A stretch of 64,000 nt of DNA. It comes from an uncultured Pseudomonadota bacterium. Lineage in GTDB: Bacteria; Myxococcota_A; Polyangia; Fen-1088. The position numbers and the translations under genes were made by a program. The stretch spans positions 32,001 to 96,000 of the forward strand of contig CAWKBC010000030.1 in the NCBI GenBank assembly GCA_963847705.1, written 5' to 3'. Positions 9,020 to 31,210 of this stretch are shown piece by piece (position 1 is the stretch's first letter; every line of letters begins with the position of its first letter). Below the pieces are notes generated by a model. It did not search any database and was not told the origin of the DNA. It saw only the letters and a program-made list of their open reading frames with translations.

Positions 9020-11419
9020 ATGCGAGACAAGCTCACACTCAAGACACTTTGGTTGCTGCAGTCGAGCGTCCTCGGGTTGGCGCTCGGGGCCGGCGCCGGG
9101 TGCAGCTCGACGAGCAAGACCACCGGGAACGTCAGCGCGCTGCCGGCCGACGTCCAGGCGATCACCTTCTTGCAGCGCACGCCGCGCAACGACGACGGCA
9201 ACGTCTTCGACTACGCCAACTTCGTCCCGGGCGGTCGGCTGTCGATGCTCTCCCCGCCCTCGGCGGACGGGCAGCTGACGGTCATCTTCCCGAACACGGC
9301 GACCTGCACCGCGCTCCTCAAGAACATGGACGGCACGGACGCCTCGCCCACCGACATCAGCAACTGCGTGAGCGGCTCCGACGTCCAGGCGTACAATCTC
9401 TCGTTCGACGCCAAGTCGGTGGTCTTCTCGGCCCAGCTCCCGGGCGACGGCAGCTACCAGATCTATTCGATCAACCTGGACGGGTCGGACCTGAAGCAGC
9501 TGACCAGCGGCGGGAACGACTTCGTCTATCCGGTCTACGCGCCGGGCGATCGCGTCACCTTCATGACCAACCGCAACGTCGAGGCGGACGCCGACCCCAG
9601 CTCGATGCAGTTCAAGGACGAGTACGAACGCGCGGTGACCGCCCAGGTCGGCAGCGTCACCACCAGCGGGACGGACCTGCAGCTCGGACCGCGCAACGTC
9701 TCCCACCGCGTCTCGCCGGCGCTGCTGCCCGACGGCCACGTGCTCTACACCGAGTGGATGCACATGGGCGAGGTCAACGAGGGGCACCTCCGCATGATGA
9801 ACACCGACATGACGGGGATGAAGGAGGCGTTCGGCGACGAGCTCGCCGCGCAGTATCCGTCGACCAACAGCTACCTCAAGGCCCGCTACGTCAAGACCAC
9901 GCCGTACTTCGACGTCGCCGCCAACAAGATGCTCGACGACTATCAGGTCATCGCCGTGGCCACCTCGCGCGATCGCACCCTGCAGTCGGGCAAGCTGTTC
10001 CTCATCGATCTCAACGGCAGCGAGGCCAACTCGACCTCGCAGGACCTGACGCCGCTCATCCCGGGCGATCGGTCGCCGAGCTCGCAGGGGATCGGCCGCT
10101 ACTACGACGCCGAGCCGGTGGGCGACGAGGCCCCGGGGCAGTTCCTCACCTCCTGGTCGGATGGCCCGGTCCAGTCGGAGGAGCTCGACCGCGCGATGAG
10201 CACCGCGCAGTTCGGCATCTACGTGCTCGACGCGGCGAACGCCAACGCCAGCAACGGCGGCCGCTCGCCCATCTACGACGACCCGAACTACTGGGACGTC
10301 CTGCCCCGCCCGGTGAAGGTGCGCCCCGAGCCGGCCAACCTGGCTTCGCAGATCAGCACCACCGACACCAGCACCACCGTCGGCTGCCTCAACGTCTACA
10401 ACTCGTCGCTGCTGACCATCCCGCAGGGGAGCGTGACGAAGGTGCGGCTCATCGAGGGCTTCTCGGGCGAAGAGGGGGGCGTCGACATGTTCGGCACCAC
10501 CGAGTTCGACGGGCAGTCGAAGTACGGCGAGATTCCGATCCAGGACGACGCCTCGTTCGCCGCCGACGTCCCGGCCAACGTGCCGCTGCACATCCAGCTG
10601 GTCGACAAGTTCGGCATGGCCACGGCGGTCAGCGGCAGCCACGGCACGGCCGTGGACACCCCGGTCGCCAACGAGGACATCTGGTTCTCCGGCCGCTCGG
10701 GCGAGTCGCGCTTCTGCGGCGGCTGCCACGAGAACCGCACCGTGGCCTCGTCGATTCAGCCGGGGGCGACCCAGGCCGTCATCCACGGTCCGGTCAACCT
10801 CGACGCGCCCCGGGCCTCTCGCCAGTCGACCACGGCCTACGTGCTCGCCAACGGCGCCCTGCCGGCCGGGACCAACGCGGCCAACCCGGGTGACAACGAC
10901 GTGCGCGGCGTCCCCTGGGATCTGGCCATTCAACCGATCCTCGACGCCAAGTGCGCCACCTGCCACAACGGCGACGCCACCCAGTCCTACAACCCGAGCT
11001 ACACCGTCACCGACATGACCAGCGGGACCTCGCAGACCTTCGTGTTCGACCTGCGCGGCCAGAAGCTCAACGTCACCGTCGGTGAGAAGATGACGGGGGA
11101 CTTCACCGCATCGTACCTGTCGCTGATGGGGCTGGGCGAGATCCTGGGCGACGACGTCGTCAAGATCACCGGGACGCCGCCCGACTACGTGACGGCGGCC
11201 GCGGCCGAGACCAGCAAGCTCATGACCGAGCACCTGAATCCGCCGCAGCGCTACCCGCTCGACACCAACACCCGCCTCGTGCCGGGCCTGGCGGTCCACC
11301 CGGTGGACGTCGGCGGAACCGAGCTGACGCCGGACGAGTACTACCTCTTGGAGCTCAACATCGACATGGGTGGCCAGTACTTCTTCCGGGAGAACCTGGA
11401 CGAAGCAGGGTCTCAGTAA
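9020..11419 (+). CDS. HzsA-related (hydrazine synthase alpha-like) lipoprotein: TolB-like propeller, middle domain, two c-type heme motifs
   Basis: Lipobox-like GAGC; propeller motifs (SFDAKSVVFS, YQIYSINLDGSDLKQLT); GEIPIQDDASFAADVPANVPLHIQLVDKFG; CGGCH and CATCH. Confidence 0.8.
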   Translation: MRDKLTLKTLWLLQSSVLGLALGAGAGCSSTSKTTGNVSALPADVQAITFLQRTPRNDDGNVFDYANFVPGGRLSMLSPPSADGQLTVIFPNTATCTALLKNMDGTDASPTDISNCVSGSDVQAYNLSFDAKSVVFSAQLPGDGSYQIYSINLDGSDLKQLTSGGNDFVYPVYAPGDRVTFMTNRNVEADADPSSMQFKDEYERAVTAQVGSVTTSGTDLQLGPRNVSHRVSPALLPDGHVLYTEWMHMGEVNEGHLRMMNTDMTGMKEAFGDELAAQYPSTNSYLKARYVKTTPYFDVAANKMLDDYQVIAVATSRDRTLQSGKLFLIDLNGSEANSTSQDLTPLIPGDRSPSSQGIGRYYDAEPVGDEAPGQFLTSWSDGPVQSEELDRAMSTAQFGIYVLDAANANASNGGRSPIYDDPNYWDVLPRPVKVRPEPANLASQISTTDTSTTVGCLNVYNSSLLTIPQGSVTKVRLIEGFSGEEGGVDMFGTTEFDGQSKYGEIPIQDDASFAADVPANVPLHIQLVDKFGMATAVSGSHGTAVDTPVANEDIWFSGRSGESRFCGGCHENRTVASSIQPGATQAVIHGPVNLDAPRASRQSTTAYVLANGALPAGTNAANPGDNDVRGVPWDLAIQPILDAKCATCHNGDATQSYNPSYTVTDMTSGTSQTFVFDLRGQKLNVTVGEKMTGDFTASYLSLMGLGEILGDDVVKITGTPPDYVTAAAAETSKLMTEHLNPPQRYPLDTNTRLVPGLAVHPVDVGGTELTPDEYYLLELNIDMGGQYFFRENLDEAGSQ

Positions 11420-11441
11420 CAACGGACGGGAGCCAGTGAAC

Positions 11442-12299
11442 ATGCGAATCATCAACATGAACGCAAAGAAGCTCGCGATCGTCGGCACGCTCGGACTCGC
11501 CCTGGCGGCGGGGCGGGGCGCGAACGCTGGGACCGGCGGCAGCGCCTCGACCATCCAGCAGGCCATCTCCGCCAACTCGGTCGACTCCATCAAGGCCGAG
11601 CTCGAACGGACGGAGTTCCTGGTCTGCGCCGCCTGCGTCGATCTGGTCACCCCGCTCGTCGACCACCCGGACGTTCGCGTCCGGACGGTCGCCGCCTGGT
11701 GGCTGGCCCGGCGCGGAATCGCCAAGACGATCCAGGTGCAGATGCTGACCCGGCTCTCGCAGCCCGACTCGACGGCGGCGCTCAACGCGGCTGACGTGCT
11801 GGGCGAGTTCCACTACGTCTCGTCGATCCCGGCGCTGGGGGCCGCGCTGTCGAACCCGACCTTCTCGGGGGCGGCGCGCGCGGAGATGGCCAAGGCGCTG
11901 GGGACGATCGGGCGCCCGGCGGGGACGCAGTATCTCACCACCGCGCTTGCCGACAGCGACCCACAGGTGCGCTCGGCCTCTCTGCTGGCGCTGCGGACCA
12001 TCCCGGGCTTCCACGACGGCAGCGTCGCGGCTCCCCTCATCGGCGACGGCGACGCGGGCGTGCGCTCCGACGCGGTCGTCACCGTCGGGATGTTCAAGTA
12101 CACCGGCGGAGCGTCGGCCCTCGTTTCGGCGCTCTCCGATCCGTCGCAGACGGTGCGCAAGAAGGCGGCCTGGGCGTTGGGCGAGATCGGGGCCTCTGCA
12201 TCGACGGCCGGCCCGGCCCTGCAGAACGCCGCCGCCAACGATCCGAGCCCGCTCGTCCGCTCGCTGGCCAAGGCCGCGCTGACCAAGCTCACGCAATAA
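11442..12299 (+). CDS. Secreted HEAT-repeat protein with a CxxC motif
   Basis: Signal peptide; PBS-lyase-like HEAT repeats (LADSDPQVRSAS, LSDPSQTVRKKAAWALG); CAAC. Confidence 0.85.
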   Translation: MRIINMNAKKLAIVGTLGLALAAGRGANAGTGGSASTIQQAISANSVDSIKAELERTEFLVCAACVDLVTPLVDHPDVRVRTVAAWWLARRGIAKTIQVQMLTRLSQPDSTAALNAADVLGEFHYVSSIPALGAALSNPTFSGAARAEMAKALGTIGRPAGTQYLTTALADSDPQVRSASLLALRTIPGFHDGSVAAPLIGDGDAGVRSDAVVTVGMFKYTGGASALVSALSDPSQTVRKKAAWALGEIGASASTAGPALQNAAANDPSPLVRSLAKAALTKLTQ

Positions 12300-12387
12300 G
12301 CTCGATTCTCGTCTCTCGCGTCTCGTTGTTCATCGTTGGTCGGTGTTCACAACCCGAGCGGGACTTGGTACAATCGGCGTCCCCGGA

Positions 12388-15300
12388 ATGCGTTCTTCCC
12401 AACAGGGCAGGGTCGGTTACGGGCTCGCAGTCGTGGCTGCGACGTTGCTCTTCGGCTGCCGGCCGGCCTCGCCGCCCGAAGAACATTTCTACGACGTCCA
12501 CATCCAGCCGATCCTCAACGCCTCTTGCGTGGGCAACACGTCGCCTTGCCACAGCATCGCCGTCGATCCGGTCACCAACAAGCCGACCGCCCTCGGCAAC
12601 CTCGATCTCTCCTCGTTTGACGGGGTCCAGAAGCGGCGCGACGTGCTCCGGACCTACGGCAGCTACCCGCAGCCGCTGCTGCTGTTGAAGGCGATGCCGC
12701 CCGAGAGCAACCAGATCCCCTACCAGGGAAACTTCTATCCGAGCGAGATCCAACACAGCGGCGGCTCGCCCATCCAGCCCAACTCTGAAGCCTACTTCGA
12801 GCTGAAGAACTGGCTCGACAACGGCGCCAATCGCGACGGGATCGCGCCCCAGGCGGTCGCCAACAAGGGACAGGGCCCCTGCAGCGACGCGCTTCCTCCG
12901 GTCAGCCAGCGCATCGCCGTCGACACCACCAGCCAGGCCTACCAGGACTTCAAGGACAACATCGAGCCGATGCTCGAGTCGTCGTGCGCCTACGGCAGCT
13001 GCCACAGCTCGCCGCAGGCCGACATGTACCTGACCTGCGGTCAGGGGGGCACCGACCCGGACGCCGAGACCGCCTTCAACTACGCGCAGGTGGCCGGCTT
13101 CGTGATCGCGCCGCCCACCGACCCGACGATGGTCAACGTCGATCAGAGCGAGATCCTCCTGCGGCCGCTGGCCGTCGCGGCCGGCGGTGTGAGCCACACC
13201 GGCGGGACCTTCTTCCAGTCGCGGACAGACAGCACCTGGATGTCCTGGGAGTCGTGGGCCAAGGAGGTCCAGGCCGCGCCGCCGCTCGCCTATGGGCCCA
13301 AGACGGCCGGGCAGACGTTCTTCGAGGAGCACGTCATGCCGAAGCTGCTCGTGCGCGGCTGCGACCTCGAGGGGTGCCACAGCCCCGATGGGTTCAACGA
13401 CTTTCGCCTCCGCTCGGGCGCGTTCGGCTTCTTCGCGCCGGCGGCGCTGACGCGCAACTACCACGCGCTGGCGGACGAGTTCATGGCCTTCGACACCGTC
13501 GACGTCAAGCAGTCACGCGCGGTGAAGAAGAACATCATCGCCGCGTCGGGTGGCACCACCCATCGCGCCGGATCGATCCTGGAGGACATCAACACCTCGG
13601 TCGACACGCCCTGCCCGCAACCGTTCGTCGACGGACCCGGCACGCGTGCCTTCTGCGTGCTCCAGGCCTGGCAGCAGGCCGAGCGGCAGGATCGGATCGC
13701 CGCCGGGAGCGTCTCGCCGATGACCGCCGGCAGCACGCTGCCGCTGGCGTTCGTGGCGCGGCCGACGAACGGCGACAATCTCCTGCACTTCGACACCTAT
13801 GAAGGGGGGGCCGATCTGAGGCTGGCCGACGCCACGCTCGACGCCAACGGCCAGGTGACCGCGGTGGGCAACGTGCGCAGCGCGCTCGGCCCCTGCGCCG
13901 GCCTGGCCGGCGAGGACGTCGACGTCCGCGGCCCCGAGTGGAGCTACGACGCGACCAAGGTGGTCTTCGCCGCGCGGCCGGGGGCGGCCAGCGGGCTCGA
14001 ATCTGTGGATGCTCGACGTGGCAGGCGGGACCTGCACCAAGCTCACCACCGACGCGGGCCGGATGGTCAGCGGGACCAATGTCCGGGTGCACAACTTCGA
14101 CCCGGTCTTCGCGCCCGACAACACCATCGTGTTCGCCTCGACGCGCTCGGGGACCCTCACCCAGCGGAACATGCTCCCCAACTCGGACCTCTTCCGGGTC
14201 AATCCGACCAACCCGGGAACGTTCAGCTACGACTTCAGCAACCCGACGCAGATGACCTTCTTGCTCAACTCGGAGCTGTCGCCCGCCTTCATGCAGGACG
14301 GGCGGGTCAGCTTCACCGCCGAGAAGGCCACCCCCGATTTTTACCAGCTGTCGGGCCGCCGGATGAACTGGGACCTCACCGACTACCACCCGCTGCTGGC
14401 GCAGCGCGCGCAGTCGACCTCCACCTTCGACAACAATCTCTTGCCGTCGGTCGGTTACCAGGAGGCGACGGAGATCCGCGAAGGGCTCGATCGGAACTTC
14501 CTGCTGATCCTCTCGAACGAAGGGGCGAAAGGGGGCGGCGGGGCGCTGGCCACCTTCAACCGCTCGATCGGCCCGTTCGAGGCCGACCGGACCGACGTCA
14601 CCTTCTTGAAATCGATGGTCATCGTCGACCCGGCCGCCGCGCCGGCCGCCGACGGCACCACCACCGGCGCCTACCGCTCGCCGTTCTCGCTCCCCAACGG
14701 CGAGATCCTGGCGTCCTACGACCCCACGGTCAAAAACATCATGACCGACATCCCGCAATATCAGCTGGTCGCGGTCGACCCGCAGACCGGAACCAGCCGC
14801 CCGCTGGCCAGCGACGGGTCGCTCTCCTATGTCGAGGCGGCGCTCGGCTACAAGCGCGGCGAGACGGAGCTGTTCTCGAACCTGCCCCAGCTGGTCTTCG
14901 GCGGCCACGCCGGGCAGACCGACGCCGGCAACAACGGCATCATGCATTTCCCGGATGTGCCGGTGCTGGCCACGCTGCTGGGCGCCAACCTGCGCCGGGG
15001 GCGTGACGTCGCGGCGTTCGACGGGGCAGCGTCGCTGAAGGTCTACCAGGACCTTCCGCCACCGGCGAGCTCGACCACCTCCATCATCCCCACGGGGGCG
15101 CTGGCCTACTCGCAGCTGATGCCCCGCGGCTCGGCGAGCCTCATGGGGGATCACTCGTTGAAGGCGCTCGTTCCCGCCGGGGTGCCGCTGATCCTCGAGT
15201 TCGACGACGGCAACGGGAAGGCCCTGTTCACGATGTCGGAGGAGCACCAGGTGACCGCGGGGGAATACATCACCCCCGGTCCCCAGCGCGCGTTGTTCAA

Positions 15301-15427
15301 CAACATCTGTGGCGGGTGCCACGGCAGCCTGAGCGGCTCGGAGCTGGACGTCGCGGTGAGTGCGGACGCCCTCACCGGCGCCTCCATCTCGCAGTCGCGC
15401 TACGCCGACCCGCAGCAGCTCCACTAG
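12388..15427 (+). CDS. Multiheme HzsA-like lipoprotein, frameshifted at ~14000 (probable sequencing error)
   Basis: Lipobox LFGC; CVGNTSPCH, CAYGSCH, CDLEGCH, then propeller and C-terminal CGGCH. Removing one base at 13999-14001 joins ORF 12343 to ORF 14009 (GLDLWMLDV). Confidence 0.78.
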
Positions 15428-15564: not shown

Positions 15565-16005
15565 GTGCTCGTCGCCGCTTCCTCGGATTCCAAGCCCTCA
15601 ACCCCTTCGGTCAACTCGGTGGTTCGCCGTCCCGACACCGCCACAGCCGCCATCTTGGCCCTCACAGCTGATCCGGAGGTCCGAGATCTGCTGCTCGAGC
15701 TGGCCATCGCAGAAGGGTTTGGTGTTCGCTGCGCCGAGACCGAGGCCGAAGCGGCCGAGATTCTCGCTCTGGAGCGTCCGGGCCTGGTGCTGGTCGACCT
15801 CGACATGCCGGCACGGACCGGGACGAAGTTCCTGCGGACCCTCCGGCAGGGCCCCTTGAACGGGATCCCCTGCATCGCCATCACCGCCTCCAACGACCCG
15901 ATGCTGGCCGTCAGCGTGGATGCGTCGATCTTCTACAAGCCGGACCTCGACGGGATCGACACGGCGATCGGGCGGCTGTTCTGGCCCGAGACCTACGGCC
16001 GCTGA
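15565..16005 (+). CDS. Single-domain response regulator (atypical acidic pocket)
   Basis: LVLVDLDMP phosphoacceptor motif, AITA, YKP; beta1 ends LTAD rather than VDDD. Confidence 0.8.
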   Translation: MLVAASSDSKPSTPSVNSVVRRPDTATAAILALTADPEVRDLLLELAIAEGFGVRCAETEAEAAEILALERPGLVLVDLDMPARTGTKFLRTLRQGPLNGIPCIAITASNDPMLAVSVDASIFYKPDLDGIDTAIGRLFWPETYGR

Positions 16006-16157: not shown

Positions 16158-17393
16158 TCAAAAACGGACCGAAAATGACCCTTGCAGGATGTGGGCGTAA
16201 GGGCGGTCGGGGTTGGGCGCGTAGATCGAATCCAGGTGATAGACGAGCAGCTCGTACTTCACGTCGGCCTCCATCTCGGCGAACCAGCTGGAGCGCTCCT
16301 GCTGCGGGCGGCGCAGGAAGGCCATCCGGCCGCCGACCAGATAGTTGCTCATCGGCGACAGCTCCCGGTCGCCGGTCCAGTACTGCCCGGCCGGGCCGAG
16401 GATGTGGTACTGGTCGCTGTTGCGATAGAAGCTGGCGCCGCTTTGCAGGTGATAGTGGCCGCGCAGGGACAACAGCATCACCGAGCTGAGGTACTTGTTC
16501 ACCACCAAGTCGCCGGTCACCGCCTGCATCGCCCAGCTGTCCTCGTAGAGGCGCGCCATCCCGATCCCCGACGCGCGCCACTGCGGAAAGGCATAAGCCG
16601 CGCGGGCGAAGAGGGCGTAGCGCTGGCGGTAGGTCGGCTCGTGCTCCTGCGGCTCCTGGTGCTCGCCGCCGACCTGCACGCTCCGGTAGGGGTTCGACTG
16701 GAAGCCGTCGAGGATCTGGATCGTACCGCCCCCCTGGATCACCAGGCGGGGGGTCATCGTCCAGGAGAGCGAGGGCTCGACCGCGTCGATGCTGAGCGGC
16801 TGGGTGACCACGTCGGTGTAGGTCGAGTTGAAGCAATGGGCGGACGACGTGAGCGGCTGCAGATGCAGCGCCGTTTCAGCCATGCTGTTGTTGGCGTCGC
16901 AGACGCTGTCCCAGTTGTGGCTGTACGCCACCACGAGCGTGAAGTTGTGGTCGTAGAGATCGTCGCGGGCGGTGACGGAGAGTGAGTGCGATCGGTAGTC
17001 ATGCTCCCAGCCGTAGGCGTAGGAGGCGCCGATGCCGGCGTCCGGGCGGTTGTAGCTGAAGCCGCCGTGGACCTGCTGGCGGAAGTCCTGGAACGGGGTG
17101 GCCTTGGTGACGGTGTCGACGAACACGGCGGGGGTCGCGCCGCTGACCGCGTCGGCCTCCCAGCCGGCCGTGACGCCGAGGCCTCCGCCGATCGGCGAAG
17201 CGGCATCGACCTGCGGGTGAATGACGGTGATCCCTTTGTTGCTGGTGGACGGCTCGCGGAAATACGTCAGGCGCGCCGAGGCCTCTGTCGGATCGTCGGC
17301 GCGCGCCGGCGCGGCCGACAACAGGGCCGAGACCAGGGGCAAGACGGCCGCCGCCAGGGTGAGGCGCGCCGGGCGTCTCAGTTGCAACCGCAC
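16158..17393 (-). CDS. DUF3570-family outer-membrane beta-barrel protein
   Basis: Signal peptide; ADAVSGAT, EHDYRS, GFQSNPYRSV, RLYEDSW, TGDRELSP; C-terminal Phe; GTG start lies within the GCGCN codons of the DUF4266 gene. Confidence 0.85.
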   Translation of the reverse strand: MRLQLRRPARLTLAAAVLPLVSALLSAAPARADDPTEASARLTYFREPSTSNKGITVIHPQVDAASPIGGGLGVTAGWEADAVSGATPAVFVDTVTKATPFQDFRQQVHGGFSYNRPDAGIGASYAYGWEHDYRSHSLSVTARDDLYDHNFTLVVAYSHNWDSVCDANNSMAETALHLQPLTSSAHCFNSTYTDVVTQPLSIDAVEPSLSWTMTPRLVIQGGGTIQILDGFQSNPYRSVQVGGEHQEPQEHEPTYRQRYALFARAAYAFPQWRASGIGMARLYEDSWAMQAVTGDLVVNKYLSSVMLLSLRGHYHLQSGASFYRNSDQYHILGPAGQYWTGDRELSPMSNYLVGGRMAFLRRPQQERSSWFAEMEADVKYELLVYHLDSIYAPNPDRPYAHILQGSFSVRF

Positions 17394-17644
17394 CCTCCGC
17401 CGGCGGTCCCACTCCCTCCGATCGCGCCCTCGCGGTTCTCCAGGATGTGCTGCTCGGCGGCCTGCTCCTGCCCGATGGCGTCGAGCGACATGATCCGGTC
17501 GGCCAAGAGCTCCCGCTGGTGGGGCCGCACGGTCCACTTCGAGGCCGCGCACCCATTGCAAACCACGGCCGCCGCCGCGACGGCCACCAGCGCCAGGCGG
17601 CGCAGGACGCCTCTCCCGCGGCTAAAAATAGACGCTGAGTGCAC
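17378..17644 (-). CDS. DUF4266-family small lipoprotein
   Basis: VRPHQRELLADRIM ... REGAIGGSGTAGGGCGCN signature. Confidence 0.88.
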   Translation of the reverse strand: MHSASIFSRGRGVLRRLALVAVAAAAVVCNGCAASKWTVRPHQRELLADRIMSLDAIGQEQAAEQHILENREGAIGGSGTAGGGCGCN

Positions 17645-18395
17645 CTGAGTACTCCTGGATTCGTTGGGTGTGGTTGGCGTCGAAGATGACGTACTGGCGG
17701 GCGTCGCCCCGCAGCGTGAGGCGCTTCTTGAGCGCGACGATCAACCCTCCGCCGACGTTCAGCATCGAGTAGTTGCCGGTCTGGATGGCGAACTGATCGG
17801 CCTTCTTGTGGCCGAAGGCGCCACCCGCCGAGGCCCCCACGAAGGGCGTGACCGGCGACGAGGCGAACAGGAAGGCGTTGAAGCCCCCTCCGGCATAGAT
17901 GACGTCGATCTGGTTGCCGACCGTCTCGCCGATCATCCCCTCGAGCGAGACGTGCGGCGCCAGGAGCCAGGAGGGGCGGAAGAGAAACATTCCGTCGCCC
18001 CCCAGGACGCCGGCGGAGAAGGTGAAGCCGACATTCTCCTCCTCCAGCGGCGGAGGCGAGAAGACCGCGGTCCCCATCCGCTTCCAGACCGAGGGGCCCT
18101 CGTGCGCGGCGGCGGTGTCGACGTCGAGCGGGAAGACCTCGTCTCCCAGGATCCAGCCGTAGGTGCCGTCGGGGAGCTCGACACGGAACCAGTGATCGTG
18201 GGAGGCCCGGCCGATGGCGGGCAGCACCTCGTTGAGCTTGGCGCGGTAGACCACCCGGAACGCGAAGCCCGGTCCGGTGTGGACCTGTGCCTCCTCGGCG
18301 ATCACGCGCACCAGCGCGCGGTCGTCGGCGCGCGCCCGGAGCGTCGTCAGCAAGACGACGGCGATGCAAGCGCCCCCCAACGCGCGGACGATCAT
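17622..18395 (-). CDS. SH3b domain plus outer-membrane beta-barrel protein
   Basis: Signal peptide; VHTGPGFAFRVV...WFRVELPDGTYGWI (bacterial SH3); alternating beta-strands ending VYF; ATGA coupling to the upstream gene. Confidence 0.8.
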   Translation of the reverse strand: MIVRALGGACIAVVLLTTLRARADDRALVRVIAEEAQVHTGPGFAFRVVYRAKLNEVLPAIGRASHDHWFRVELPDGTYGWILGDEVFPLDVDTAAAHEGPSVWKRMGTAVFSPPPLEEENVGFTFSAGVLGGDGMFLFRPSWLLAPHVSLEGMIGETVGNQIDVIYAGGGFNAFLFASSPVTPFVGASAGGAFGHKKADQFAIQTGNYSMLNVGGGLIVALKKRLTLRGDARQYVIFDANHTQRIQEYSGALSVYF

Positions 18396-23420: not shown

Positions 23421-23500
23421 CACCTCCTCGCGCTCACGTGAACCCCGGGCCGCGCGGAATCGGGAGCCGCCCGCTCGATTCGTCTGATCCTCCGCACGGG

Positions 23501-23568
23501 ACTTTTTTCCGGCCGCGGTGAGCGCACCTGTCGATTCGAGGCCGCGCTCACCGCGGCCGGAAAAAAGT
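23501..23568. repeat. Perfect 25-bp inverted repeat with an 18-nt loop
   Basis: ACTTTTTTCCGGCCGCGGTGAGCGC (23501-23525) and its exact reverse complement (23544-23568); extendable by CCTCCGCAC/GTGCGGAGG. Confidence 0.9.
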
Positions 23569-23697
23569 TCATGTGCGGAGGCGGAGGGGAGAACGAGCGG
23601 GCGACCTTGATTCCGCACATGCCCGGGGTTCACGGGCGGCGCGTTTACGCGCGGCGAGTTCAGGTTCGGTATCGCGCCGACTGGGACAGAGCGCGCG

Positions 23698-23915
23698 GCC
23701 GATGCGCGAAGCGCGAGGCCCGTGAGGCGTGCCGATGCGCGAAGCGCGAGGCCCGTGACGCCCGCGCGACATGCCGATGCGCGAAGCGCGAGGCCCGCGA
23801 GGCCCGTGAGGCGTGCCGATGCGCGAAGCGCGAGGCCCGCGACGCCCGCGCGACATGCCGATGCGCGAAGCGCGCGGCCCGCGCGGCCCGCGCGGCCCGC
23901 GACGCCCGCGCGGCC
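23698..23915. repeat. REP-like tandem array, 5 copies of GCCGATGCGCGAAGCGCG(A/C)GGCCCG
   Basis: Units start at 23698, 23731, 23773, 23815 and 23857 (spacing 33/42/42/42) and contain 9-bp sub-repeats. Confidence 0.9.
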
Positions 23916-23928
23916 GCGGGTGGGGCGT

Positions 23929-26900
23929 CTATTGATCACGTCGCACCTCCTCGATCCGGTCGAGCGTCACCCGTGGCTCGCCTGGGCGGGTGGAGAGCCG
24001 CAGCTCGGCCTCCTTGGGGAATTCGTTTTCGGCCAGGCGCCCCAGCGCCTGCCGGATCGCTTGCGTGTGCTTGTTGTAGACGCCGATCTGCAGCGCGCGC
24101 GCGTAGCCGGACTTGTAGGCGTCGATCGCCTTGTCCTCGATCACCACGATGACCTTCTCCAGCTCGTCGCGGTACATCTGCTTCTCGTCTTCCTTGAGGT
24201 CCTTCGGGACCGGCGCGTTGCGCATCGCCTTGGCGAAGGCCTCGTAGCCCTGGCCGATGCGCAGCAGCGAGGCCGTTGCCCACTCGGGTGACTTGTAGGT
24301 GACGACGTCGAGATAGATCGACTTCGCCTCTTCGAGCCGCTTGGCCTTCTCCTCGAGGACCTTGGCGAGCTGCCTCGGCTTGCCGGCGATCTTGATCTTC
24401 TCGTAGTCGAGGTAGGCCAGCTCGCCCTGGATGTAGCGGGCCTCGGCGGCGTAGTAGCTTCCTTCGTCGCTCCCCTTGCCGTGCTTGCCGTAAGCGGCCA
24501 GCGCCTTGGCGGCGGTCTCCTTGGCGGCGGCGTCGTTGCCGGCCTTGAGGTGCGCATCGGCCTCGCGGGCCAGCGCCTCGACGGTCTTGCCGTCGCCCGG
24601 GTAGACCTTGCTGAAGGCGGCGAACGAGGCGGCGGCGCCGCGCCAATCCTTCTGATCCTCGCGCACGACGGCGGCCTGAAAGGCGACGTCCTTGGCGTCG
24701 GGGCGGTCCTTGTAACGCCTGGCATACTCGCCGTAGTGCTTGATGGCCCGGTCGTGCTGGCCCAGGCTCTGGCGCAGGACGCCGGCGGAGCGGAGCGCGT
24801 CGGCGGCGTGGCTGTTCTGCGGATACTTCGCGGCCAGCTGTTCGTAAAGGCCGGCGGCCTTGTCGTAGTAGGCGATGTTCTCCTCGATGCGGGCGGCGGT
24901 GAAGAGCGCCTCGGGGGCCTCGCTGGCCGCGGGATACGTGTCGGCCAGCTGCTTGTAGGCGGCGACCGCCTCGTCCTGCTTCTTCTCCTTTTCGTAGACC
25001 ACGGCCGCGTTGTTGAGCGCCTTGGGGGCGTAGCCGTTCTGCGGATACTCGTTCGGCACCCGCAGGAAGAAGGCGGCCGCCTTGTCGTACTCGCCGCTCT
25101 GCGCGTACTTCTCGCCCGACTTCATGACCGCGCCGACGATCAGCTTGTCGAGGCGATCCTGCTCGTCCTTCGAGGCGAAAGCCTTGGTCTTCTTGAGGCG
25201 GCGCGCCCAGCTCTCGATGTTCTCGTAGTCCTTGGCCTTGCCGAGCGCCTGCAAGATGCGATCGCCGGCGGCGCCCGCGTTGGGGTCGTCGGGGTAGCGC
25301 TCGACGATCAGGCCGAACCGCTTGACCGCCTCGTCGTAGTCGCCGTAGTCGAAGAAGAACTGCCCGTTCTTGTAGATGACGGTGACGATCTCCTTGTCGT
25401 TGGGGAAAAGCGTGGCGTAGAGGTCGGCCGCCTCGCCGAACAGGCGATCGCTGTCGGTGATCTCGCGCTTGCCGGCGCCGGCGCCGTTGCTGGGGATCGG
25501 CTTGCGGACCTTCTCGAAGGCCCCCATCGATTGCAGGAGCGCGTCCTTGTGGTACTTGCCGACCGGCTGGGTCTTGCCGACGGCCAGGTACTCGCGGCCG
25601 GCGTCCTCGTATTTGCCGAGCTTGAAGTAGAGGATGTCGGCGCGCAGGTAGCGCAGCTCGGCGGCGTCGAGCGCCTCGGGGAAGTTGGCCAGGTAGAACT
25701 GGTAGGCCTCGGCGGCGCGCGCGTAACGATCCTTGTCGACGACCTTGGTCGTCTTCTCCGTCTGCTGCGCCTCGGCGTGCATCGTCTTGGCCAGGTTGCG
25801 GATCAGCCCCTCGGCCATGGTGCGGGCATGCTCGACCGCCTTCGGACGATCCTTGTTGGCGGTGGCCCAGGCGCTGCGGGGGCCGTAGTCGCCGGCCAGC
25901 TTCCGCATCTCCTCGACGGCGGTCTTGGTGTCGCCGAGGAGCTGATACCCCTCGACGATCTTGCCGGCGTGGTCGGGGGCGTCGCTGGCGTTGGGATCGA
26001 GCTCGATGAGCAGCCGATAGGCCTCGACCGCGCGCTCGTAGCGGGTCTGGTCGAAGACCGTGTCGGCCAGCTGCTTCAGAACCTTGCGCGAGTATTGCTT
26101 GCCGCCGATCTGGGCCAGGAACTCGAAGGCGTCGCGGGCCGTCTTGGTGTCATCCTCCGTGAAGAGCTCGACCAAATAGTCGAGCGCCTCGCCCTGCAGC
26201 TCCTCGGCCCGCTTCTGCTGCTCCTCGCTGCGCCCCGCCTTCTTCTTGGCGAGATCGAGCACGTCCTTGAACCGCAGCGCCGACTTGGTGGTGTCGCCCA
26301 GCTTCCAGTAGCACCAGGCGGTCTTGAACAGCGCCAGATCGTAGAGCGTCGACTGGGGGTGCTCGAGGACCTTCTCGTAGGCCTCGAGGGAGGTCTTGTA
26401 GTCCTGCTGCTCGTAGAAGCGGTACTCGGCGATCGCCATCCAGGCGTCGGCGATGTAGCGGGAGCGCGGGTACTTATCGAGGATGATCTGGAAGTACCTG
26501 ATCGACTCGCCCAGCTTCCCCTGATCGCGCAGCGAGAAGGCGTAGAGGTAGATGACCGTGTCGATCTTGCGGAACTTCGGGTACTGGTCGATGAGCTGCA
26601 GGTAGGTCGCCTGCGCGCGGCTCAGATCGATGGTCGGCGGGCGGTGCGGAACCTTCGGGCATTCCGCGCGATCGGCGTGACAGGCCGACACCGCCGCCTG
26701 ATAGCGCCCCATCTTCTCGAGGTAGACCTCTTTCGACTCCTCCCAGTAGAGCTCGGCCAGCTTGTAGAGGGACTCCGCCTGCTCCTTGGCGCGGAAGCCG
26801 GCCGACCCGCGCGGGTTCTCATGCAGGTAGGCCTCGAGGAGGCGGATCGCCTCCCGCCGCGCCTCGGTGATCTGCCCTTCCTTCTCTTCCAGCGCCTTTT

Positions 26901-27114
26901 GCAGGATCGGCGGCAGCGTCTTCTCGGGCTCGCTCGCCTTGTCGTCGTCGCCCTTGCCGCCTTTGCCGTTCTTGTCGGCGGGCCTGTCCGCCGCGGCGAA
27001 CGCGGTTCCGCGCGGCGCCAAGAGCGGCAACGTCAGCGCGAGCGCACCGACGATCGACAGGGCGAAGCGCCGCGACCGGGCGAGGCCCGCTCTATTTGAA
27101 GTTCTCGTACTCAT
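23929..27114 (-). CDS. GltD/AgmU/NfsD-like large periplasmic TPR protein
   Basis: Signal peptide, >1000 aa of TPR/YfiO-like repeats; C-terminal EWATASLLRIGQ...YRDELE...IEDKAIDAY typical of GltD. Confidence 0.85.
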   Translation of the reverse strand: MSTRTSNRAGLARSRRFALSIVGALALTLPLLAPRGTAFAAADRPADKNGKGGKGDDDKASEPEKTLPPILQKALEEKEGQITEARREAIRLLEAYLHENPRGSAGFRAKEQAESLYKLAELYWEESKEVYLEKMGRYQAAVSACHADRAECPKVPHRPPTIDLSRAQATYLQLIDQYPKFRKIDTVIYLYAFSLRDQGKLGESIRYFQIILDKYPRSRYIADAWMAIAEYRFYEQQDYKTSLEAYEKVLEHPQSTLYDLALFKTAWCYWKLGDTTKSALRFKDVLDLAKKKAGRSEEQQKRAEELQGEALDYLVELFTEDDTKTARDAFEFLAQIGGKQYSRKVLKQLADTVFDQTRYERAVEAYRLLIELDPNASDAPDHAGKIVEGYQLLGDTKTAVEEMRKLAGDYGPRSAWATANKDRPKAVEHARTMAEGLIRNLAKTMHAEAQQTEKTTKVVDKDRYARAAEAYQFYLANFPEALDAAELRYLRADILYFKLGKYEDAGREYLAVGKTQPVGKYHKDALLQSMGAFEKVRKPIPSNGAGAGKREITDSDRLFGEAADLYATLFPNDKEIVTVIYKNGQFFFDYGDYDEAVKRFGLIVERYPDDPNAGAAGDRILQALGKAKDYENIESWARRLKKTKAFASKDEQDRLDKLIVGAVMKSGEKYAQSGEYDKAAAFFLRVPNEYPQNGYAPKALNNAAVVYEKEKKQDEAVAAYKQLADTYPAASEAPEALFTAARIEENIAYYDKAAGLYEQLAAKYPQNSHAADALRSAGVLRQSLGQHDRAIKHYGEYARRYKDRPDAKDVAFQAAVVREDQKDWRGAAASFAAFSKVYPGDGKTVEALAREADAHLKAGNDAAAKETAAKALAAYGKHGKGSDEGSYYAAEARYIQGELAYLDYEKIKIAGKPRQLAKVLEEKAKRLEEAKSIYLDVVTYKSPEWATASLLRIGQGYEAFAKAMRNAPVPKDLKEDEKQMYRDELEKVIVVIEDKAIDAYKSGYARALQIGVYNKHTQAIRQALGRLAENEFPKEAELRLSTRPGEPRVTLDRIEEVRRDQ

Positions 27115-28906
27115 CCGACCAGTACTCGCCCTCGAACGGCCAGTACTCCTCGTCATCGCCCATCAACCCCTCGAGCTGGAGGGTGGCGAACAGCTCAGCC
27201 GGGTAGCGGCCGTCGCGCAGGTGCTCGACCTCGATCTCCAGCTTCTTCTTCTTGCCGATGATGGCGTCGATCTGGGTGAGCCGCGCCTGCCGGAGCAGAT
27301 CGCGCAGCCGCTTGTCCAGATCCGCCAGCGCCTTGCCGGCGATGAGCCCTGTCGCCGTGACCAGGTGCGCGCGCAGCTTCCGTGCCTCGGCGCCCAGGGC
27401 CAGCGTCGCCGCCGCCTCCTTGGCGAAGGGGCCGCTGCCGACGTTCTTGAGCCGCGCCGCCCGGTGCGCCTCGTCGGCGAGCTGGCTCACGCGCTCTTCC
27501 ATCTCCGGATCGCCGGCGGCCAGCGGGCGCAGCGACTCGACGTCCTGCACCAGGCGCACCGCCTCGGTGGCGTCGACCCCCTCGGCCTGGCCGTCGATCT
27601 GCGCCTTCTGGTGCGCGGTCAGCTCGTCCCAGATGGCGACCTCGTTGGGGATCCGGCCGGCCTCGCGATCGAGCGCCTGAATGTCGCCATAGAACTTGTA
27701 GAAGCGCGGGTCGACCTTGAGCAGATCGGCGATCGGATCGTGCGGCGTGGCGATCGAGGCCTTGCTGAGCAGCCGCCGGTAGAGCGCGCCGCGCTTGGCC
27801 GGGTCCTTGAGCAGCGCCGCCACCTGCACCTCGATCGGGCCGTAGACCTGCACGAACCTCTCCAGCGTGGCCCGCACGGTGTCGAACTGGCAGGACTTGA
27901 GGTCGATCATCGCGTGCAGCAGCATCACGTCGGGCGCCAGCGGCGAGGCGGGGAAGTTGTGGTCGAACTCCTCCAGAAACGCGCGGGCCGCCTCGTACTC
28001 CCCCTTCTGGAACATCGACCACGACGCCTCGAAGAGGGCGTCGGGCAGGCGATCGGAATCGGCGGGGACCCGGAAGTAGAAGTAGTAGGCGTCGTCGTAC
28101 TTCCCCTGCTCGTGGGCGATCCGGCCGAGCGCCAGATAGGCCAGGTCCTTGACCGCGAAGTAGCGGCCGTCGATGAAGAAGGTGAAGCGGTCCTGGTCGG
28201 CCTGCTCGACGATCTCGCACAGGTTGCGGCGGGCCGAGGCGAAGTGATTCTGGCGGGCCTGGATGAGGCCGCGGAAGTAGAGGGCGGCCGCGTAGAAGCG
28301 CGACTGGCGGTCGACCGCGGAGAAGAGCGCCTCGGCCTGGGCGGCGGCGCCGGTCTCGTAGGCGACCTTGCCGGCCAGGTAGGCGTGCTCGGCGGCGCTG
28401 TCGCGGGGCAGCGCCTCTCCGCGGGCCTGATCGTAATGATCGAGCACCGCGAGCATCTCGGCCTCCTCCTTGGTCTCGAGCGCGATGTCGACCAGGGCGC
28501 GGTAGGCGGGGGCGAACTGCGGGGCCTGGGGTCCGCGGGCGAGAACGCGCAACAGGTAGCGCTCGGCGCTCTTGGTTCCGCCCGCACGGATGAGGGCGCG
28601 CGCCAGGGTCAGCTCGGCGGTGGCGTAGTCGGGCGCGTACTCGAGCTGAACGTAGCGCTGCGACTCGACGATCTTGTAGAGACGGACGCTGGCGATCTCG
28701 GCGTTGCCGGTGACCAGATCGTCCTCGGCGGCGGCCAGCTCTTCGCGCAGCTTGTCCAGCGTCGCCGGCGTCTTGTCGCCGCCGAGCACGCCCGCCTTCT
28801 CCAGGTCGGTGAGATAGCGCGCCATCGGGTCGCCGGCCTGTGGCTGTGCCTTCGCCGTTGGGGCCTCGGCGGGCTGGCAGAGCAGGGTGACCAGGAGCGC
28901 GATCAT
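27092..28906 (-). CDS. GltC/NfsC-like TPR protein
   Basis: TPRs, [16 protein letters not shown] and the C-terminal GltC-type motif [13 protein letters not shown]. Confidence 0.85.
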
Positions 28907-29604
28907 TTTTCCGTCTTCAGCTCGAGCTCGATCTCCGGTTCGTACCCGGGGAGATCGCCATCGTCGTCGGCGGTGAACGCCACGGTGGTCGTCCCGGCGT
29001 CGGGGACCTGGACCACGAACGTCTGTTCGGATTCGTAGCCCAGATCGGCGTGTTCCTTTTCGCCCTTCTTCCCGGGGCGGACCTCGATCTTCACCGTGAC
29101 CGTGTGCGGCCCCGGCTTGATCGGCCGCTCCGACACCTTGATGAGCTCGTCGACCAGCGGCTTTTCACCGGAGTCCCAGATGGAGTTGCCGTCGAGGCGG
29201 ATCTCCGCCCGGTGGAGGATGAAGTCGGGCGCGCCCTTCCAGCGCAGGGTCGCCCCCAGCTTGGAGGCATAGATCCCCTCCTCGACCAGCTCGGCCCGGG
29301 CGCGGGCGCGGAACAGCTCGTCGCGCAGGCGATCGTACTCCGCCCGCAGCTTGGCGAGGTCGATGGTGGCCGCCACGGGCGGGGCCGTCTCGTTGGCGCC
29401 GTTTCCGCTGCTGGCGCCGTTTCCGCTGCCGGCCGGCGGCGCGGCGCTCTTGTCGGCGGGGTGCCCGGCGTCGGGACTCCCCGAGGTCGCCTCGGCGCTG
29501 GAATCGTTCTTTCCCGCCTTGGCCGCGCGCGCCGGGAGGGCGCCGGCCGTCAGCGAAACGAGCGGCAACGCGATCACCAATGTCGATAGCCTGGGCAGCT
29601 TCAT
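28903..29604 (-). CDS. Secreted hypothetical protein (coiled coil plus beta-sandwich) in the glt-like operon
   Basis: Signal peptide, low-complexity linker, LRAEYDRLRDELFRARAR helix, IKPGPHTVTV; ATGA coupling to the gltC homolog. Confidence 0.8.
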   Translation of the reverse strand: MKLPRLSTLVIALPLVSLTAGALPARAAKAGKNDSSAEATSGSPDAGHPADKSAAPPAGSGNGASSGNGANETAPPVAATIDLAKLRAEYDRLRDELFRARARAELVEEGIYASKLGATLRWKGAPDFILHRAEIRLDGNSIWDSGEKPLVDELIKVSERPIKPGPHTVTVKIEVRPGKKGEKEHADLGYESEQTFVVQVPDAGTTTVAFTADDDGDLPGYEPEIELELKTEK

Positions 29605-29609
29605 CGTCG

Positions 29610-30374
29610 TTACTCCGTGAAGGGGACGTACATGCTCACGCCGACGGTGGTGGTGAGGTCGTTGACGACCATCACCTGGGAGAGCAGCTGTTGCCGGTAG
29701 ACGTGGTCGCGCACGTCGAAGCGAATGGCGAAGATGTGCCCAAGAAAAAATTTCAACCCGAAGCCGCCGTTGCCGGCCAGATCTTCAGAGAGGACCGAAT
29801 CGACCAGACCGCCGCCCAGCGCCAGGTAGAAGTCGAAGTGGGTGATCGAGCCGCCGAGGCGCATCTTGGCGTGCGCCGGCACCCAGATCAGGTCGGCGTC
29901 GAAGTAGAGCTCGGTGCGCGGCTTGCCGGCCAGCACGCTGAAGGTCCGCTCGAGCTCGGGGCCGCCCGACGAGGTGAGGCGCGTGTATGCCGCCGACGCC
30001 TCGACGCCGAGGTCCTCGGTCATGTGATAGGTGTAGGCGCCACCGAAGGTGTAGGTGCCGTCGAAGAGATCGGAGACGTAGTAGCCACCCTGCAAGGTCA
30101 GCTCGTGGCGGTTGGCTTGCTGAAAGAGACGCTCGCGGCTGGTGCGCTGCTTTCGCTTGGCGAAGAGATCCGCCTTGATGTTCTCGTCGATGCAGGCGTC
30201 TTGGTGTTCGGGACCCTGAGAGGGTCCCGCGCCCCCCGCGATGGGCTCGGACGAGCTGAGCTCGTCCTCCCCCGACGCGATCCCGCCTGGCTGTGCGTCG
30301 TCGGCCGCCGCGCTGGTGGCGGTTCCAGCCAGCAGCAGGGCGGCGCCGACGGCGATGAGACCTAGCCTAGCCAT
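29610..30374 (-). CDS. GltA/GltB-type myxobacterial outer-membrane beta-barrel
   Basis: RHELTLQGGYYVSD...YTYHMTEDLGVE, WVPAHAK, HFDFYLALGGG, RFDVRD. Confidence 0.85.
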   Translation of the reverse strand: MARLGLIAVGAALLLAGTATSAAADDAQPGGIASGEDELSSSEPIAGGAGPSQGPEHQDACIDENIKADLFAKRKQRTSRERLFQQANRHELTLQGGYYVSDLFDGTYTFGGAYTYHMTEDLGVEASAAYTRLTSSGGPELERTFSVLAGKPRTELYFDADLIWVPAHAKMRLGGSITHFDFYLALGGGLVDSVLSEDLAGNGGFGLKFFLGHIFAIRFDVRDHVYRQQLLSQVMVVNDLTTTVGVSMYVPFTE

Positions 30375-31210
30375 AGGCTCAGCCCCGCGAGGACGGTGAC
30401 GTTGTTGGTGATGCGCCCGCGTCCCAGAACCTCCTGCGGCAAGAGAAAGTCCCGCAGGTCGAGCCGGAAGGAGAAGAACCGGTTGAAGTAGAGCTTGGCG
30501 CCGACGCCGGCCTCCCAGGTCAGCCCCAGCACGCTGGGGTCGGCGGTGCGGCCGGCGCCCACCACCGCGAACAGATCGCCGTGGATGATCGTCGTGTCGC
30601 TGAACTTGAACTTCGCGTGAATGGGCGACCAGAGCAGCGACGCGATCCCTTGCCAGGCGACGGTGGGCGAAAAGTGGGTCTGCTGGTCGAACGCCGTGAA
30701 GGGCTGCTCCAGCCGAAACTGCATCGGCGTTCGGGTGAGGAGAAACTCGAGGCCGAAGTCCTCCGACGGATAGAAGGCGACCGCGCCGCCGTAGCTGTAC
30801 GTCGACGACAGCGCGTCGGAGGCGTAGAAGCCGCCCAGCCCCGACAGCTCGAAGCGGTGCTTCTTGAGAAAGTCGCGGCGCTGGACTCCCTTGCGTTTGC
30901 CGCCGGTGGCGTCCCCTTCCAGGCAGGCGAGCCCGTGCAGCGCCGACTCGGCCGACTCTGCCTCGTCCCCGCCTTCGTCGTCGTTGTCGCCCGAGGCCTC
31001 TTCGCTCGATTGACTGGTCGCGGAGGAGGCGTCGCGCGCATCGCTGGCCGGCGTCGCGTCGTCGTTGTCGCCGCTGTCGCCGCTGTTGTGGTCCGCGGTC
31101 TCGAACGGGTTGTCCGTCGGCTTAGAGCCCGCCCCCGGGGGCGCGGCCAACGCCGAGGTCCCGTTGGTGAGCCCGTAAGCCAGAGCGATCACGACTGTCG
31201 CACGTACCAA
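30362..31210 (-). CDS. GltA/GltB-type myxobacterial outer-membrane beta-barrel
   Basis: FLKKHRFELS, WSPIHAK, HGDLFAVVGAG, RLDLRD; paralog of the neighbouring gene. Confidence 0.85.
   Translation of the reverse strand: MVRATVVIALAYGLTNGTSALAAPPGAGSKPTDNPFETADHNSGDSGDNDDATPASDARDASSATSQSSEEASGDNDDEGGDEAESAESALHGLACLEGDATGGKRKGVQRRDFLKKHRFELSGLGGFYASDALSSTYSYGGAVAFYPSEDFGLEFLLTRTPMQFRLEQPFTAFDQQTHFSPTVAWQGIASLLWSPIHAKFKFSDTTIIHGDLFAVVGAGRTADPSVLGLTWEAGVGAKLYFNRFFSFRLDLRDFLLPQEVLGRGRITNNVTVLAGLSLWLG

Follow-up and report, generated by a model that had tools for sequence, protein, structure and literature searches.

The closest described systems are the Agl-Glt gliding transducer and the Nfs spore-coat complex of Myxococcus xanthus (PMC3169522, PMC3858216, PMC11761067). 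The locus described here resembles both in its gltA, B, C, D, E, F, G and H-like gene set and its TonB-C-type GltG, and it resembles nfs in having no I, J or K and no motor in the cluster. It differs in that its GltD belongs to a clade separate from motility-type paralogs, its proteins lie below all gliding cut-offs and the GltG histidine is mostly absent; it also carries extra unknown, lipoprotein, cytochrome, SH3-barrel, DUF4266 and DUF3570 genes. The last two are known from flavinylation clusters that combine ApbE and DUF3570 with genes of thioredoxin-like type and with DUF4266, termed ‘DsbD systems’ (PMC8238504), with which the locus shares the DUF3570 [S/T]GA[S/T] motif, an adjoining CxC-bearing DUF4266 and an ApbE in the genome. 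However, this cluster contains no ApbE, thioredoxin or DsbD gene, DUF3570 here mostly has a single motif and not two, and the pair is joined to cytochrome, SH3-barrel and glt genes.

The third comparison is with the alpha subunit of hydrazine synthase (PDB 5C2V), which likewise combines a propeller with a middle and a C-terminal heme domain. The Tyr591 heme ligand and the Cys303 zinc site of hydrazine synthase are missing here, as in the published non-anammox alpha homologs (PMC12758564). Unlike the alpha subunit, the locus encodes two lipoprotein paralogs, one with three extra N-terminal modules, together with a HEAT protein, and there is no beta or gamma neighbour. The combination of a Glt paralog, a DUF3570 module and HzsA-like proteins was not found in print; the supplementary tables of PMC8238504 may list such clusters, and ‘Myxococc’ and ‘DUF3570’ do not occur in the main text of PMC12758564. 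The locus brings together, as one candidate system, three published orphans: Glt paralogs outside motility, the flavinylation clusters with DUF3570/DUF4266, and the homologs of hydrazine synthase alpha from non-anammox organisms.

The window is the whole stretch of DNA analysed, 64,000 nt at positions 32,001-96,000 (forward strand) of contig CAWKBC010000030.1, assembly GCA_963847705.1, from Fen-1088 (Polyangia, Myxococcota_A). Open reading frames and family profile searches recovered every gene listed in the original prediction, in the order and on the strands first noted. These genes form three modules: a glt-like operon; a cytochrome-SH3-barrel-DUF4266-DUF3570 set; and HzsA1-HEAT-HzsA2. The features are as follows.

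2434..3825, minus strand: FHA and sigma-54 enhancer-binding protein, candidate regulator, outside the core set
8812..8916: two palindrome copies (GTTGCGCAAC), 95 bp apart, candidate activator sites
8975..8992, plus strand: sigma-54 -24/-12-like site, GG-N10-GC
9020..11419, plus strand: HzsA1, predicted lipoprotein, hydrazine synthase alpha homolog (HZS_alpha PF18582; lipobox by eye)
11442..12299 (open frame from 11370), plus strand: exported HEAT-repeat protein (HEAT_2)
12343..15427, plus strand: HzsA2, predicted lipoprotein, frameshifted near 14000 in the assembly
15565..16005, plus strand: stand-alone receiver domain, not core (Response_reg)
16158..17387, minus strand: DUF3570, predicted 16-stranded outer-membrane barrel, SGAT motif (3e-21)
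17378..17644, minus strand: DUF4266, small predicted lipoprotein, CGCN end, start codon uncertain (1.6e-18)
17622..18395, minus strand: SH3 domain and small outer-membrane barrel (SH3_3)
18392..18871, minus strand: small predicted mono-heme lipoprotein, CX4CH and distal His (heme binding predicted by homology)
18868..19485, minus strand: GltH/CglE-like barrel (54.8 bits, cut-off 70)
19499..20347, minus strand: conserved lipoprotein, no assigned family
20347..21756, minus strand: GltG-like, short form (171.6 bits, cut-off 650)
21778..22239, minus strand: GltF-like (label from position and size)
22236..23423, minus strand: GltE-like TPR lipoprotein (114 bits, cut-off 225)
23440..23929: local repeat insertion in the gltD/gltE gap
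23929..27156, minus strand: GltD-like TPR scaffold (label from size, TPR content and position)
27092..28906, minus strand: GltC-like TPR protein (124 bits, cut-off 450)
28903..29604, minus strand: exported protein, no assigned family
29610..30374, minus strand: GltA/B-like barrel (TIGR04565, 108.7 bits)
30362..31210, minus strand: GltA/B-like barrel, first gene of the operon (TIGR04565, 88.2 bits)
31369..31411: near-palindrome pair upstream of gltA (GTTGCGCCAC on the minus strand)

HzsA1 was detected in 25 of 300 Myxococcota genomes, and the counts that follow come from kin genomes that are not independent. The same 25 genomes carry the small cytochrome at E<=4.5e-28, compared to 9.8e-12 for the best other genome, with a query alignment that included 21 of the 25 and not the remaining 4. 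The best GltD and DUF3570 matches fall in these 25 genomes as well. Among 59 chosen genomes, DUF3570 was found at E<=1.7e-44 in all 26 that are HzsA1-positive and in one incomplete genome of the same genus; the best match in the remaining 32 was 8e-20. One genome that is 82% complete (G013) has DUF3570, with HzsA1 and the GltD ortholog absent. Presence and absence split inside families (12/23, 3/18 and 1/2) and inside one genus (1/3), and the negatives of one family (f15) retain other GltD paralogs. In Polyangia, a distinct Glt copy is kept or lost together with the flavin-motif barrel and the HzsA-like lipoproteins.

The convergent layout was observed in 22 of 80 loci. A divergent layout occurs in L114/G338, and L158 has a co-directional run, gltC..H-hzsA1-HEAT-cyt-SH3-DUF4266. 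In a fourth geometry, on metagenome contigs, DUF3570 is placed within the glt operon, and the flanks of these loci showed no HzsA. Two genomes of other lineages (G193, G208) have an HzsA2-like gene, the small cytochrome and DUF3570 in one run, and some HzsA2-like/DUF3570 clusters have no glt gene in the stretch examined. Outside this lineage, the heme operon is rarely near glt or DUF3570 (0/13 family-level loci and 1/37 of the most distant). The convergent operon pair originally described is real here, but such adjacency is confined to one lineage, though the link is wider. The response regulator placed between the operons is likewise present in the window, but it was not found in 7 of the 22 convergent loci and was rejected as a core part. 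Co-occurrence in 25 genomes and four geometries support the predicted co-conservation of the Glt class, the DUF3570 module and the heme operon. The three modules very probably form one system.

Profile scores and a GltD tree bear on the class of this Glt copy. The two GltA/B-like barrels exceed the TIGR04565 cut-off; the CglE/GltH, GltG, GltE and GltC models all matched below their curated NCBIfam cut-offs, and gltD and gltF gave no gliding-family matches. Because no sampled genome reaches the GltG or GltC cut-off, relative scores are the better test. Another cluster in the same genomes scores higher for both GltC (231-314 vs 86-147 bits) and GltG (214-424 vs 121-152). In a quick tree covering 16 of the 25 HzsA1 genomes, in which FHA-GltG clusters served as motility proxies and M. 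xanthus Glt and Nfs were absent, 23 GltD rows formed one group (SH-aLRT 100) apart from the FHA-GltG motility-like paralogs of the same genomes. GltD from the metagenome contigs with DUF3570 inside the glt operon is sister to this clade (support 0.999). The identity gap is narrow (33-50% vs up to 32%). No grouping with the motility proxies was seen in the GltD tree, and the separate Glt class that had been proposed is supported by its own clade relative to the FHA-GltG proxies. A gliding ortholog was rejected, since the other same-genome cluster scores far higher and GltD lies outside the motility-type proxies.

The eight-gene A-H set without I, J and K is an Nfs-like feature. No full match to GltI, J, K or CglB was found among the locus proteins, and no motor genes were found in the locus; elsewhere in the genome, one ExbB and two ExbD-like genes lie at C17:77639-79396 (AglRQS label by eye). 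GltG aligns to model positions 183-646 only and consists of one cytoplasmic domain, a TM helix and a TonB-C-like AgmX/PglI domain; the long form with an N-terminal FHA domain was not found. All members retain the TM helix of GltG together with its long linker and its TonB-C domain. An S-x3-H-type transmembrane histidine, a motif of the TonB/TolA type, is present in 6 of 21 GltG orthologs and absent in 15, including those of this genus.

The structure model of DUF3570 is a 16-stranded barrel (pLDDT 92.5) without a plug domain, and Foldseek returned only generic barrels for it. The SGA[S/T] motif is kept in 44 of 44 DUF3570 sequences, and the locus has both the [S/T]GA[S/T] motif in DUF3570 and the adjacent CxC-bearing DUF4266. 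Neither ApbE nor thioredoxin-like genes were found in the locus; ApbE sits alone on contig C29. ApbE was found in 26 of 26 HzsA1-positive genomes, but also in 24 of 33 negatives. A search of a plasmid collection gave no matches for DUF3570 or GltD and only two partial matches for the SH3 protein. Some of the distant SH3-barrels found come from deltaproteobacterial records.

HzsA1 matches HZS_alpha PF18582 (E 1.5e-7) and is colinear with 5c2v_A over its full length (E 1.2e-25). Its propeller is followed by a middle domain with CGGCHE and by a C-terminal CxxCH with distal His, the alpha-subunit architecture of hydrazine synthase. However, CGGCHE.R stands where hydrazine synthase has CSGCHYGSY, neither the Tyr591 ligand nor the Cys303 zinc site is present, and the alignment of relatives holds no invariant Cys beyond the heme motifs. 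Hydrazine-type N-chemistry, which falls within the activities first suggested, is unlikely given that neither Tyr591 nor the zinc cysteine is conserved, and hydrazine synthesis as the function was rejected with the hydrazine-forming residues missing. Three propeller-diheme queries for beta and gamma subunits gave one partial match, in an 85%-complete genome (G000). HzsA1 relatives are encoded in at least 537 genome stretches, so the system may represent surface chemistry that is common among these myxobacteria; among the best 80 of these stretches, group names, where given in the title, are mostly Myxococcota-type.

The HEAT gene adjoins hzsA1 in every locus where the sequence extends far enough. 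HzsA2 consists of three CXnCH modules (n=6, 4, 4), a propeller and a CGGCH middle domain. A single additional base near 14000 breaks its frame in the window; this base is absent from six same-genus relatives and from three short contigs of public runs (X1, X3 and X8). The frameshift is thus an assembly error or strain-private; a programmed frameshift was rejected.

The heme module that had been noticed in both the small cytochrome and the large protein of the opposite operon, HzsA2, is real. An HMM built from small cytochromes alone matches the N-terminal HzsA2 modules of relatives (E 1e-15 to 4e-9, full-length copies). The small cytochrome shares homology with the three HzsA2 modules and with hydrazine synthase's heme-αII domain, the module type being PSCyt1/hydrazine-synthase heme-alphaII. 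Across relatives its distal His is invariant and the heme-motif spacing ranges from 4 to 13. A fold search with the apo cytochrome model gave no Foldseek matches and a best Z of 3.4, to FoxE.

Each of the two operons has a palindrome pair ahead of it in this genus. The GTTGCGCAAC pair upstream of hzsA1 is kept in the genus and most close relatives and was not found in distant families; the near-palindrome pair upstream of gltA is present in 6 of 6 same-genus loci. Paired sites number only three in the 6.1-Mb genome, for a motif defined from two of these same three, and single sites are at background (11 vs 12.3). The third pair precedes another AgmX/PglI-domain gene (on C47), whose presence does not track the system. 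The GG-N10-GC site upstream of hzsA1 is one that we take to be sigma-54 -24/-12-like; no sigma-54 site was found before gltA. The FHA and sigma-54 activator is 57% identical to an activator between hzsA1 and gltA in G338, and up to 15 genomes have similar activators next to gltA or to DUF3570, as counted from a single-linkage cluster that may include other activators.

That the modules are kept or lost together suggests a machine that positions a surface redox complex rather than one for cell movement. The favoured reading, held tentatively at close to an even chance, is that the non-motility Glt copy delivers the heme lipoproteins and holds them on outer-membrane barrels as a predicted surface redox complex. 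In M. xanthus a single motor serves both Glt and Nfs, and GltG here would likewise engage a shared motor of AglRQS type whose genes lie elsewhere. Force would then travel through GltC/D/E/F to the GltA/B/H barrels, which are known to make the lipoprotein CglB surface-exposed. In this copy the small cytochrome, HzsA1 and HzsA2 would be carried instead, and the HEAT protein would act as chaperone or scaffold. ApbE may flavinylate the DUF3570 SGAT loop, which is predicted to face outward. The flavinylated DUF3570, the DUF4266 CxC and the small cytochrome could then provide an electron path to a heme active site located where the propeller and the middle domain meet in the HzsA-like pair, and the substrate would be an external one. 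In this lineage the sigma-54 activator would co-induce both operons. On this reading, Glt-type motors outside gliding would have a defined cargo, one that can be followed by heme stain, FMN fluorescence and surface exposure.

To our knowledge, the original job of the Glt core has been unexplained since 2011. It is conceivable, though doubtful, that this job was the export and display of heme lipoproteins, driven by pmf across and along the outer membrane and wired through a flavinylated barrel, with gliding and the spore coat derived from it; a motor-positioned surface enzyme may then serve, for example, contact-dependent oxidation of prey or polymers.

The same genes could instead serve energised uptake, the Glt copy pulling a metal, heme or redox-processed nutrient TonB-like through DUF3570 or the small barrels while hemes and flavin reduce or release it. 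The TonB-C-like domain of GltG, the open barrel modelled for DUF3570 and the 25 DUF3570 clusters with a VIT1 iron transporter (PMC8238504) are consistent with uptake, but the barrel has no plug, no transporter recurs among the neighbours and a six-heme, catalytic-looking pair exceeds uptake needs; we consider it unlikely. Somewhat less credible is a static scaffold, a Glt copy that belongs to the complex but has lost its motor coupling and serves only as a link between the inner membrane and the redox module in the outer membrane. The histidine loss in 15 of 21 GltG, the lack of motor genes at the locus and the lack of GltI/J-like matches among its proteins would suit a tether, whereas the TM helix, linker and TonB-C domain persist in all GltG members, and Nfs (PMC3858216) also has no GltI/J/K or motor of its own yet uses AglRQS.

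Improbable, too, is mere co-regulation, in which the glt paralog, the redox module with DUF3570 and the heme enzyme would be physically separate and respond to one physiological state through one sigma-54 activator. Here the common upstream motif, the scattering of modules in most families and the HzsA2-like/DUF3570 clusters without nearby glt have to be set against DUF3570 and cytochrome genes interleaved within the glt operon in several lineages, and against co-occurrence that persists in families where the motif is missing. The nearby FHA-sigma-54 activator, receiver domain and Ser/Thr kinase could point to a surface redox or gas (NO, O2) sensor signalling inward through the GltG cytoplasmic domain and the activator; however, the receiver is not a conserved component, kinases are found everywhere in myxobacteria and the heme content suggests catalysis or electron transfer, which makes a sensor very improbable. 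Hardly credible at all is a Polyangia gliding or spore-coat machine, or a hydrazine synthase. The A-H set without I, J and K and the short GltG do resemble nfs, and HzsA1 is colinear with the alpha subunit, but the gliding models give far higher scores to another cluster of the same genomes, neither Tyr591 nor the zinc cysteine is present, and G000 has no clear beta or gamma partner beyond its partial match.

A Ser/Thr kinase, the receiver domain and the FHA-sigma-54 activator are encoded near the locus. Between gltD and gltE lie ~500 bp in which an 18-bp unit occurs five times; a whole-genome search found this unit nowhere else. Pfam searches of the exported protein (28903..29604) and the lipoprotein (19499..20347) gave nothing useful; the exported protein recurs in a second Polyangia glt paralog cluster.

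ORF and codon-position analysis combined with family scans (22 proteins) confirmed the gene list of the original prediction. The plus strand carries the heme operon, which encodes two hydrazine-synthase-alpha-like heme lipoproteins and a HEAT protein:

9020-11419, plus strand, HzsA1, first gene of the operon HzsA1, HEAT, HzsA2

The minus-strand order is gltA/B, gltA/B, an unknown gene, gltC, gltD, a 500-bp repeat insertion, gltE, gltF, gltG, a lipoprotein gene and gltH, followed by the DUF3570 module (small cytochrome, SH3-barrel, DUF4266, DUF3570). Lipoprotein signals were assigned by eye. The repeat insertion (23440-23929) is probably non-coding; the frame is open across it from the gltD stop into gltE (567-aa ORF). 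The HzsA2 frame shifts near 14000, where the window has one extra base compared with six same-genus relatives. This base is likewise missing from short contigs of three of the four public sequencing runs compared, and each of the 15 aligned HzsA2 copies of relatives reads as one uninterrupted frame of about 1000 aa. An RCC1-like repeat protein, a TPR protein and a Ser/Thr kinase, the last adjacent across the genus, are encoded between a candidate sigma-54 activator and hzsA1 (3880-8711).

The heme operon had been predicted to be co-conserved with the Glt copy and the DUF3570 module. In a draw of 300 phylum genomes, HzsA1 and the small cytochrome mark one and the same set of 25, which also have the best GltD and DUF3570 matches. 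HzsA1 is present in these 25 genomes of the draw, all within the class (25 of the 58 in ten listed same-class families), and strong small-cytochrome matches are confined to them (21 were in the query alignment). With two candidates scored per genome, GltD identity is 33-50% in the 25 genomes versus up to 32% in 60 other matching genomes. DUF3570 separates at 1.7e-44 versus 8e-20 (59 chosen genomes), and the one discordant genome, G013, is incomplete. Within the genus, HzsA1 occurs in 22/24 genomes and gene order is kept in 8/8 fetched loci. Of 13 loci from other families, 12 keep the heme operon whole (G150 is without an adjacent HzsA2), and neither glt nor DUF3570 lies beside it in any of the 13. 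Fisher tests of co-occurrence overstate the association because the sampled genomes are kin; the evidence that can be used comes from three families and one genus in which carriers and non-carriers both occur.

The proposal of a separate class of Glt was supported by phylogeny: GltD from heme-operon genomes forms one group apart from other paralogs of the same genomes, in trees that do not include M. xanthus Glt and Nfs. In a quick IQ-TREE analysis (45 rows), 23 heme-operon-genome rows, representing 16 of the 25 phylum-draw genomes and 7 others, grouped with SH-aLRT 100, and two borderline negatives (G033, G035) fell outside. A profile of this clade gave 1151-1377 bits for seven more of the 25, and none of 20 other paralog loci exceeded 691. 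In a 31-row FastTree, four GltD sequences from metagenomes took the sister position to this clade. The same genomes contain a separate FHA-GltG cluster, with much higher scores on gliding models, and a third glt type. In the source genome (G000), a second glt cluster (C23:63210-70139; gltD fragment, E, F, G) continues directly into polysaccharide-export-like genes (barrel, Wza-like and Wzc-like, labeled by eye) and is a candidate Nfs/Exo-type link. The third type (C18:20132-23797) begins with a gene homologous to the unknown one, followed by gltC and gltD, and ends at the contig edge.

Locus geometry varies. The convergent layout was seen in 22 of the best 80 of at least 537 HzsA1 loci, all 22 at ≥51% identity; several of the 80 are from genomes already counted in other samples. 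At L114, glt is upstream of the heme operon and divergent. A Haliangiales locus (L158) reads gltC-D-E-F-G-lipoprotein-H-hzsA1-HEAT-cytochrome-SH3-DUF4266 on a single strand, with HzsA2 on a different contig. In G031, G032 and G278, the DUF3570 module is just upstream of gltA, the two being separated by a sigma-54 activator gene. Metagenome contigs of another lineage (16 matches, 8 long ones examined, two pairs possibly near-copies) carry SH3-gltB-DUF3570-unknown-gltC in 7/8 long loci, 6 of these with the cytochrome before and gltD after; HzsA was not found in the flanks of the 8. Other lineages (G193, G208, G340) have HzsA2-like genes with a small cytochrome, a propeller-diheme protein and DUF3570, and no nearby glt. 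Pairs of hydrazine-synthase-like alpha and propeller-diheme (beta-gamma-like) proteins occur in non-anammox genomes (L171, L172, L167, L208, L209), some with small cytochrome, DUF4266/DUF3570 and ApbE, and in several copies in G340.

HzsA1 aligns colinearly with the alpha subunit of hydrazine synthase, 5c2v_A (E 1.2e-5 from a single sequence, 1.2e-25 from a 17-sequence profile), which HzsA2 also matches (E 4.5e-11). According to PMC12758564, the unusual heme alphaI site is defined by Tyr591 and Cys303, and non-anammox homologs lack these residues. They are absent here too; HzsA1 has an invariant C..GCHE.R. The heme module said to be common to the small cytochrome and HzsA2 was recovered, with the cytochrome-family HMM matching HzsA2's three N-terminal modules. 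Across the small cytochrome family (27 sequences), the C, CH and distal His are invariant and spacing ranges from CX4CH to CX13CH. The cysteines of the long-spacing forms may instead make a disulfide; we infer that the family binds heme at these spacings also. Its nearest named atlas cluster, PSCyt1, is a lead only, and a fold search with the small cytochrome yielded no clear structural match (best Z 3.4, to FoxE). Five genomes of family f7 (L071, L073, L076, L078, L079) also have a small CxxCH mono-heme lipoprotein close to the DUF3570 module, and a G000 cluster of proteins with 6, 20 and 10 CxxCH (C27:793955-799590) is a possible porin-multiheme conduit.

The predicted DUF3570 structure has 16 strands (pLDDT 92.5). 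Strand 3 ends in SGAT, on the side with the long loops, which by standard barrel topology would be the outer one. The SGA[S/T] motif is kept in 44/44 members of the clade; a search of the N-terminal 130 residues of 4 distant DUF3570 did not find it. ApbE-dependent flavinylation of such motifs is reported in PMC8238504 for a Chlorobium DUF3570. One ApbE, unlinked to the locus, is encoded in G000 (85% complete). The four-gene module is intact in 24/24 fetched loci. G000 has two more DUF4266-DUF3570 pairs (C40:153424-155434, C17:61848-62996), one with a TlpA-like gene.

GltABH, GltK and GltC are modeled to bring the lipoprotein CglB to the surface, and GltF, G and D to provide the link to the motor (PMC11761067); Nfs borrows an unlinked Agl motor (PMC3858216); and the Glt core and further paralogs are left without assigned function (PMC3169522, in whose available text 'cytochrome' does not occur). 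By analogy with CglB exposure by Glt and motor sharing by Nfs, this Glt copy may be a display machine, which would present heme lipoproteins beside the putatively flavinylated DUF3570 barrel. The TonB/TolA-type transmembrane histidine of GltG is present in only 6/21 members, which counts against active coupling. The Glt, DUF3570 and heme combination was not found in the literature searched, which included few subscription journals, and 'glt' is absent from the available part of a preprint (bioRxiv 2023.06.07.544157). The finding is real, and new here are the matched 25-genome profile, the GltD clade, the four geometries, the homology of the heme modules and the motif common to both upstream regions.

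Two GTTGCGCAAC palindromes and a sigma-54-like site are located upstream of hzsA1, and two GTTGCGCCAC palindromes upstream of gltA. Both pairs are kept within the genus, and the hzsA1 pair also beyond it; neither was found in distant families. Single sites in G000 number 42, the background level, and pairs only three, by a pattern defined from two of the three. The third pair precedes another AgmX/PglI-domain gene, whose distribution does not follow the system. At this third site (C47:46488-48734, L201), two AgmX/PglI-domain genes lie either side of paired GTTGCGCAAC and a run of short repeats.
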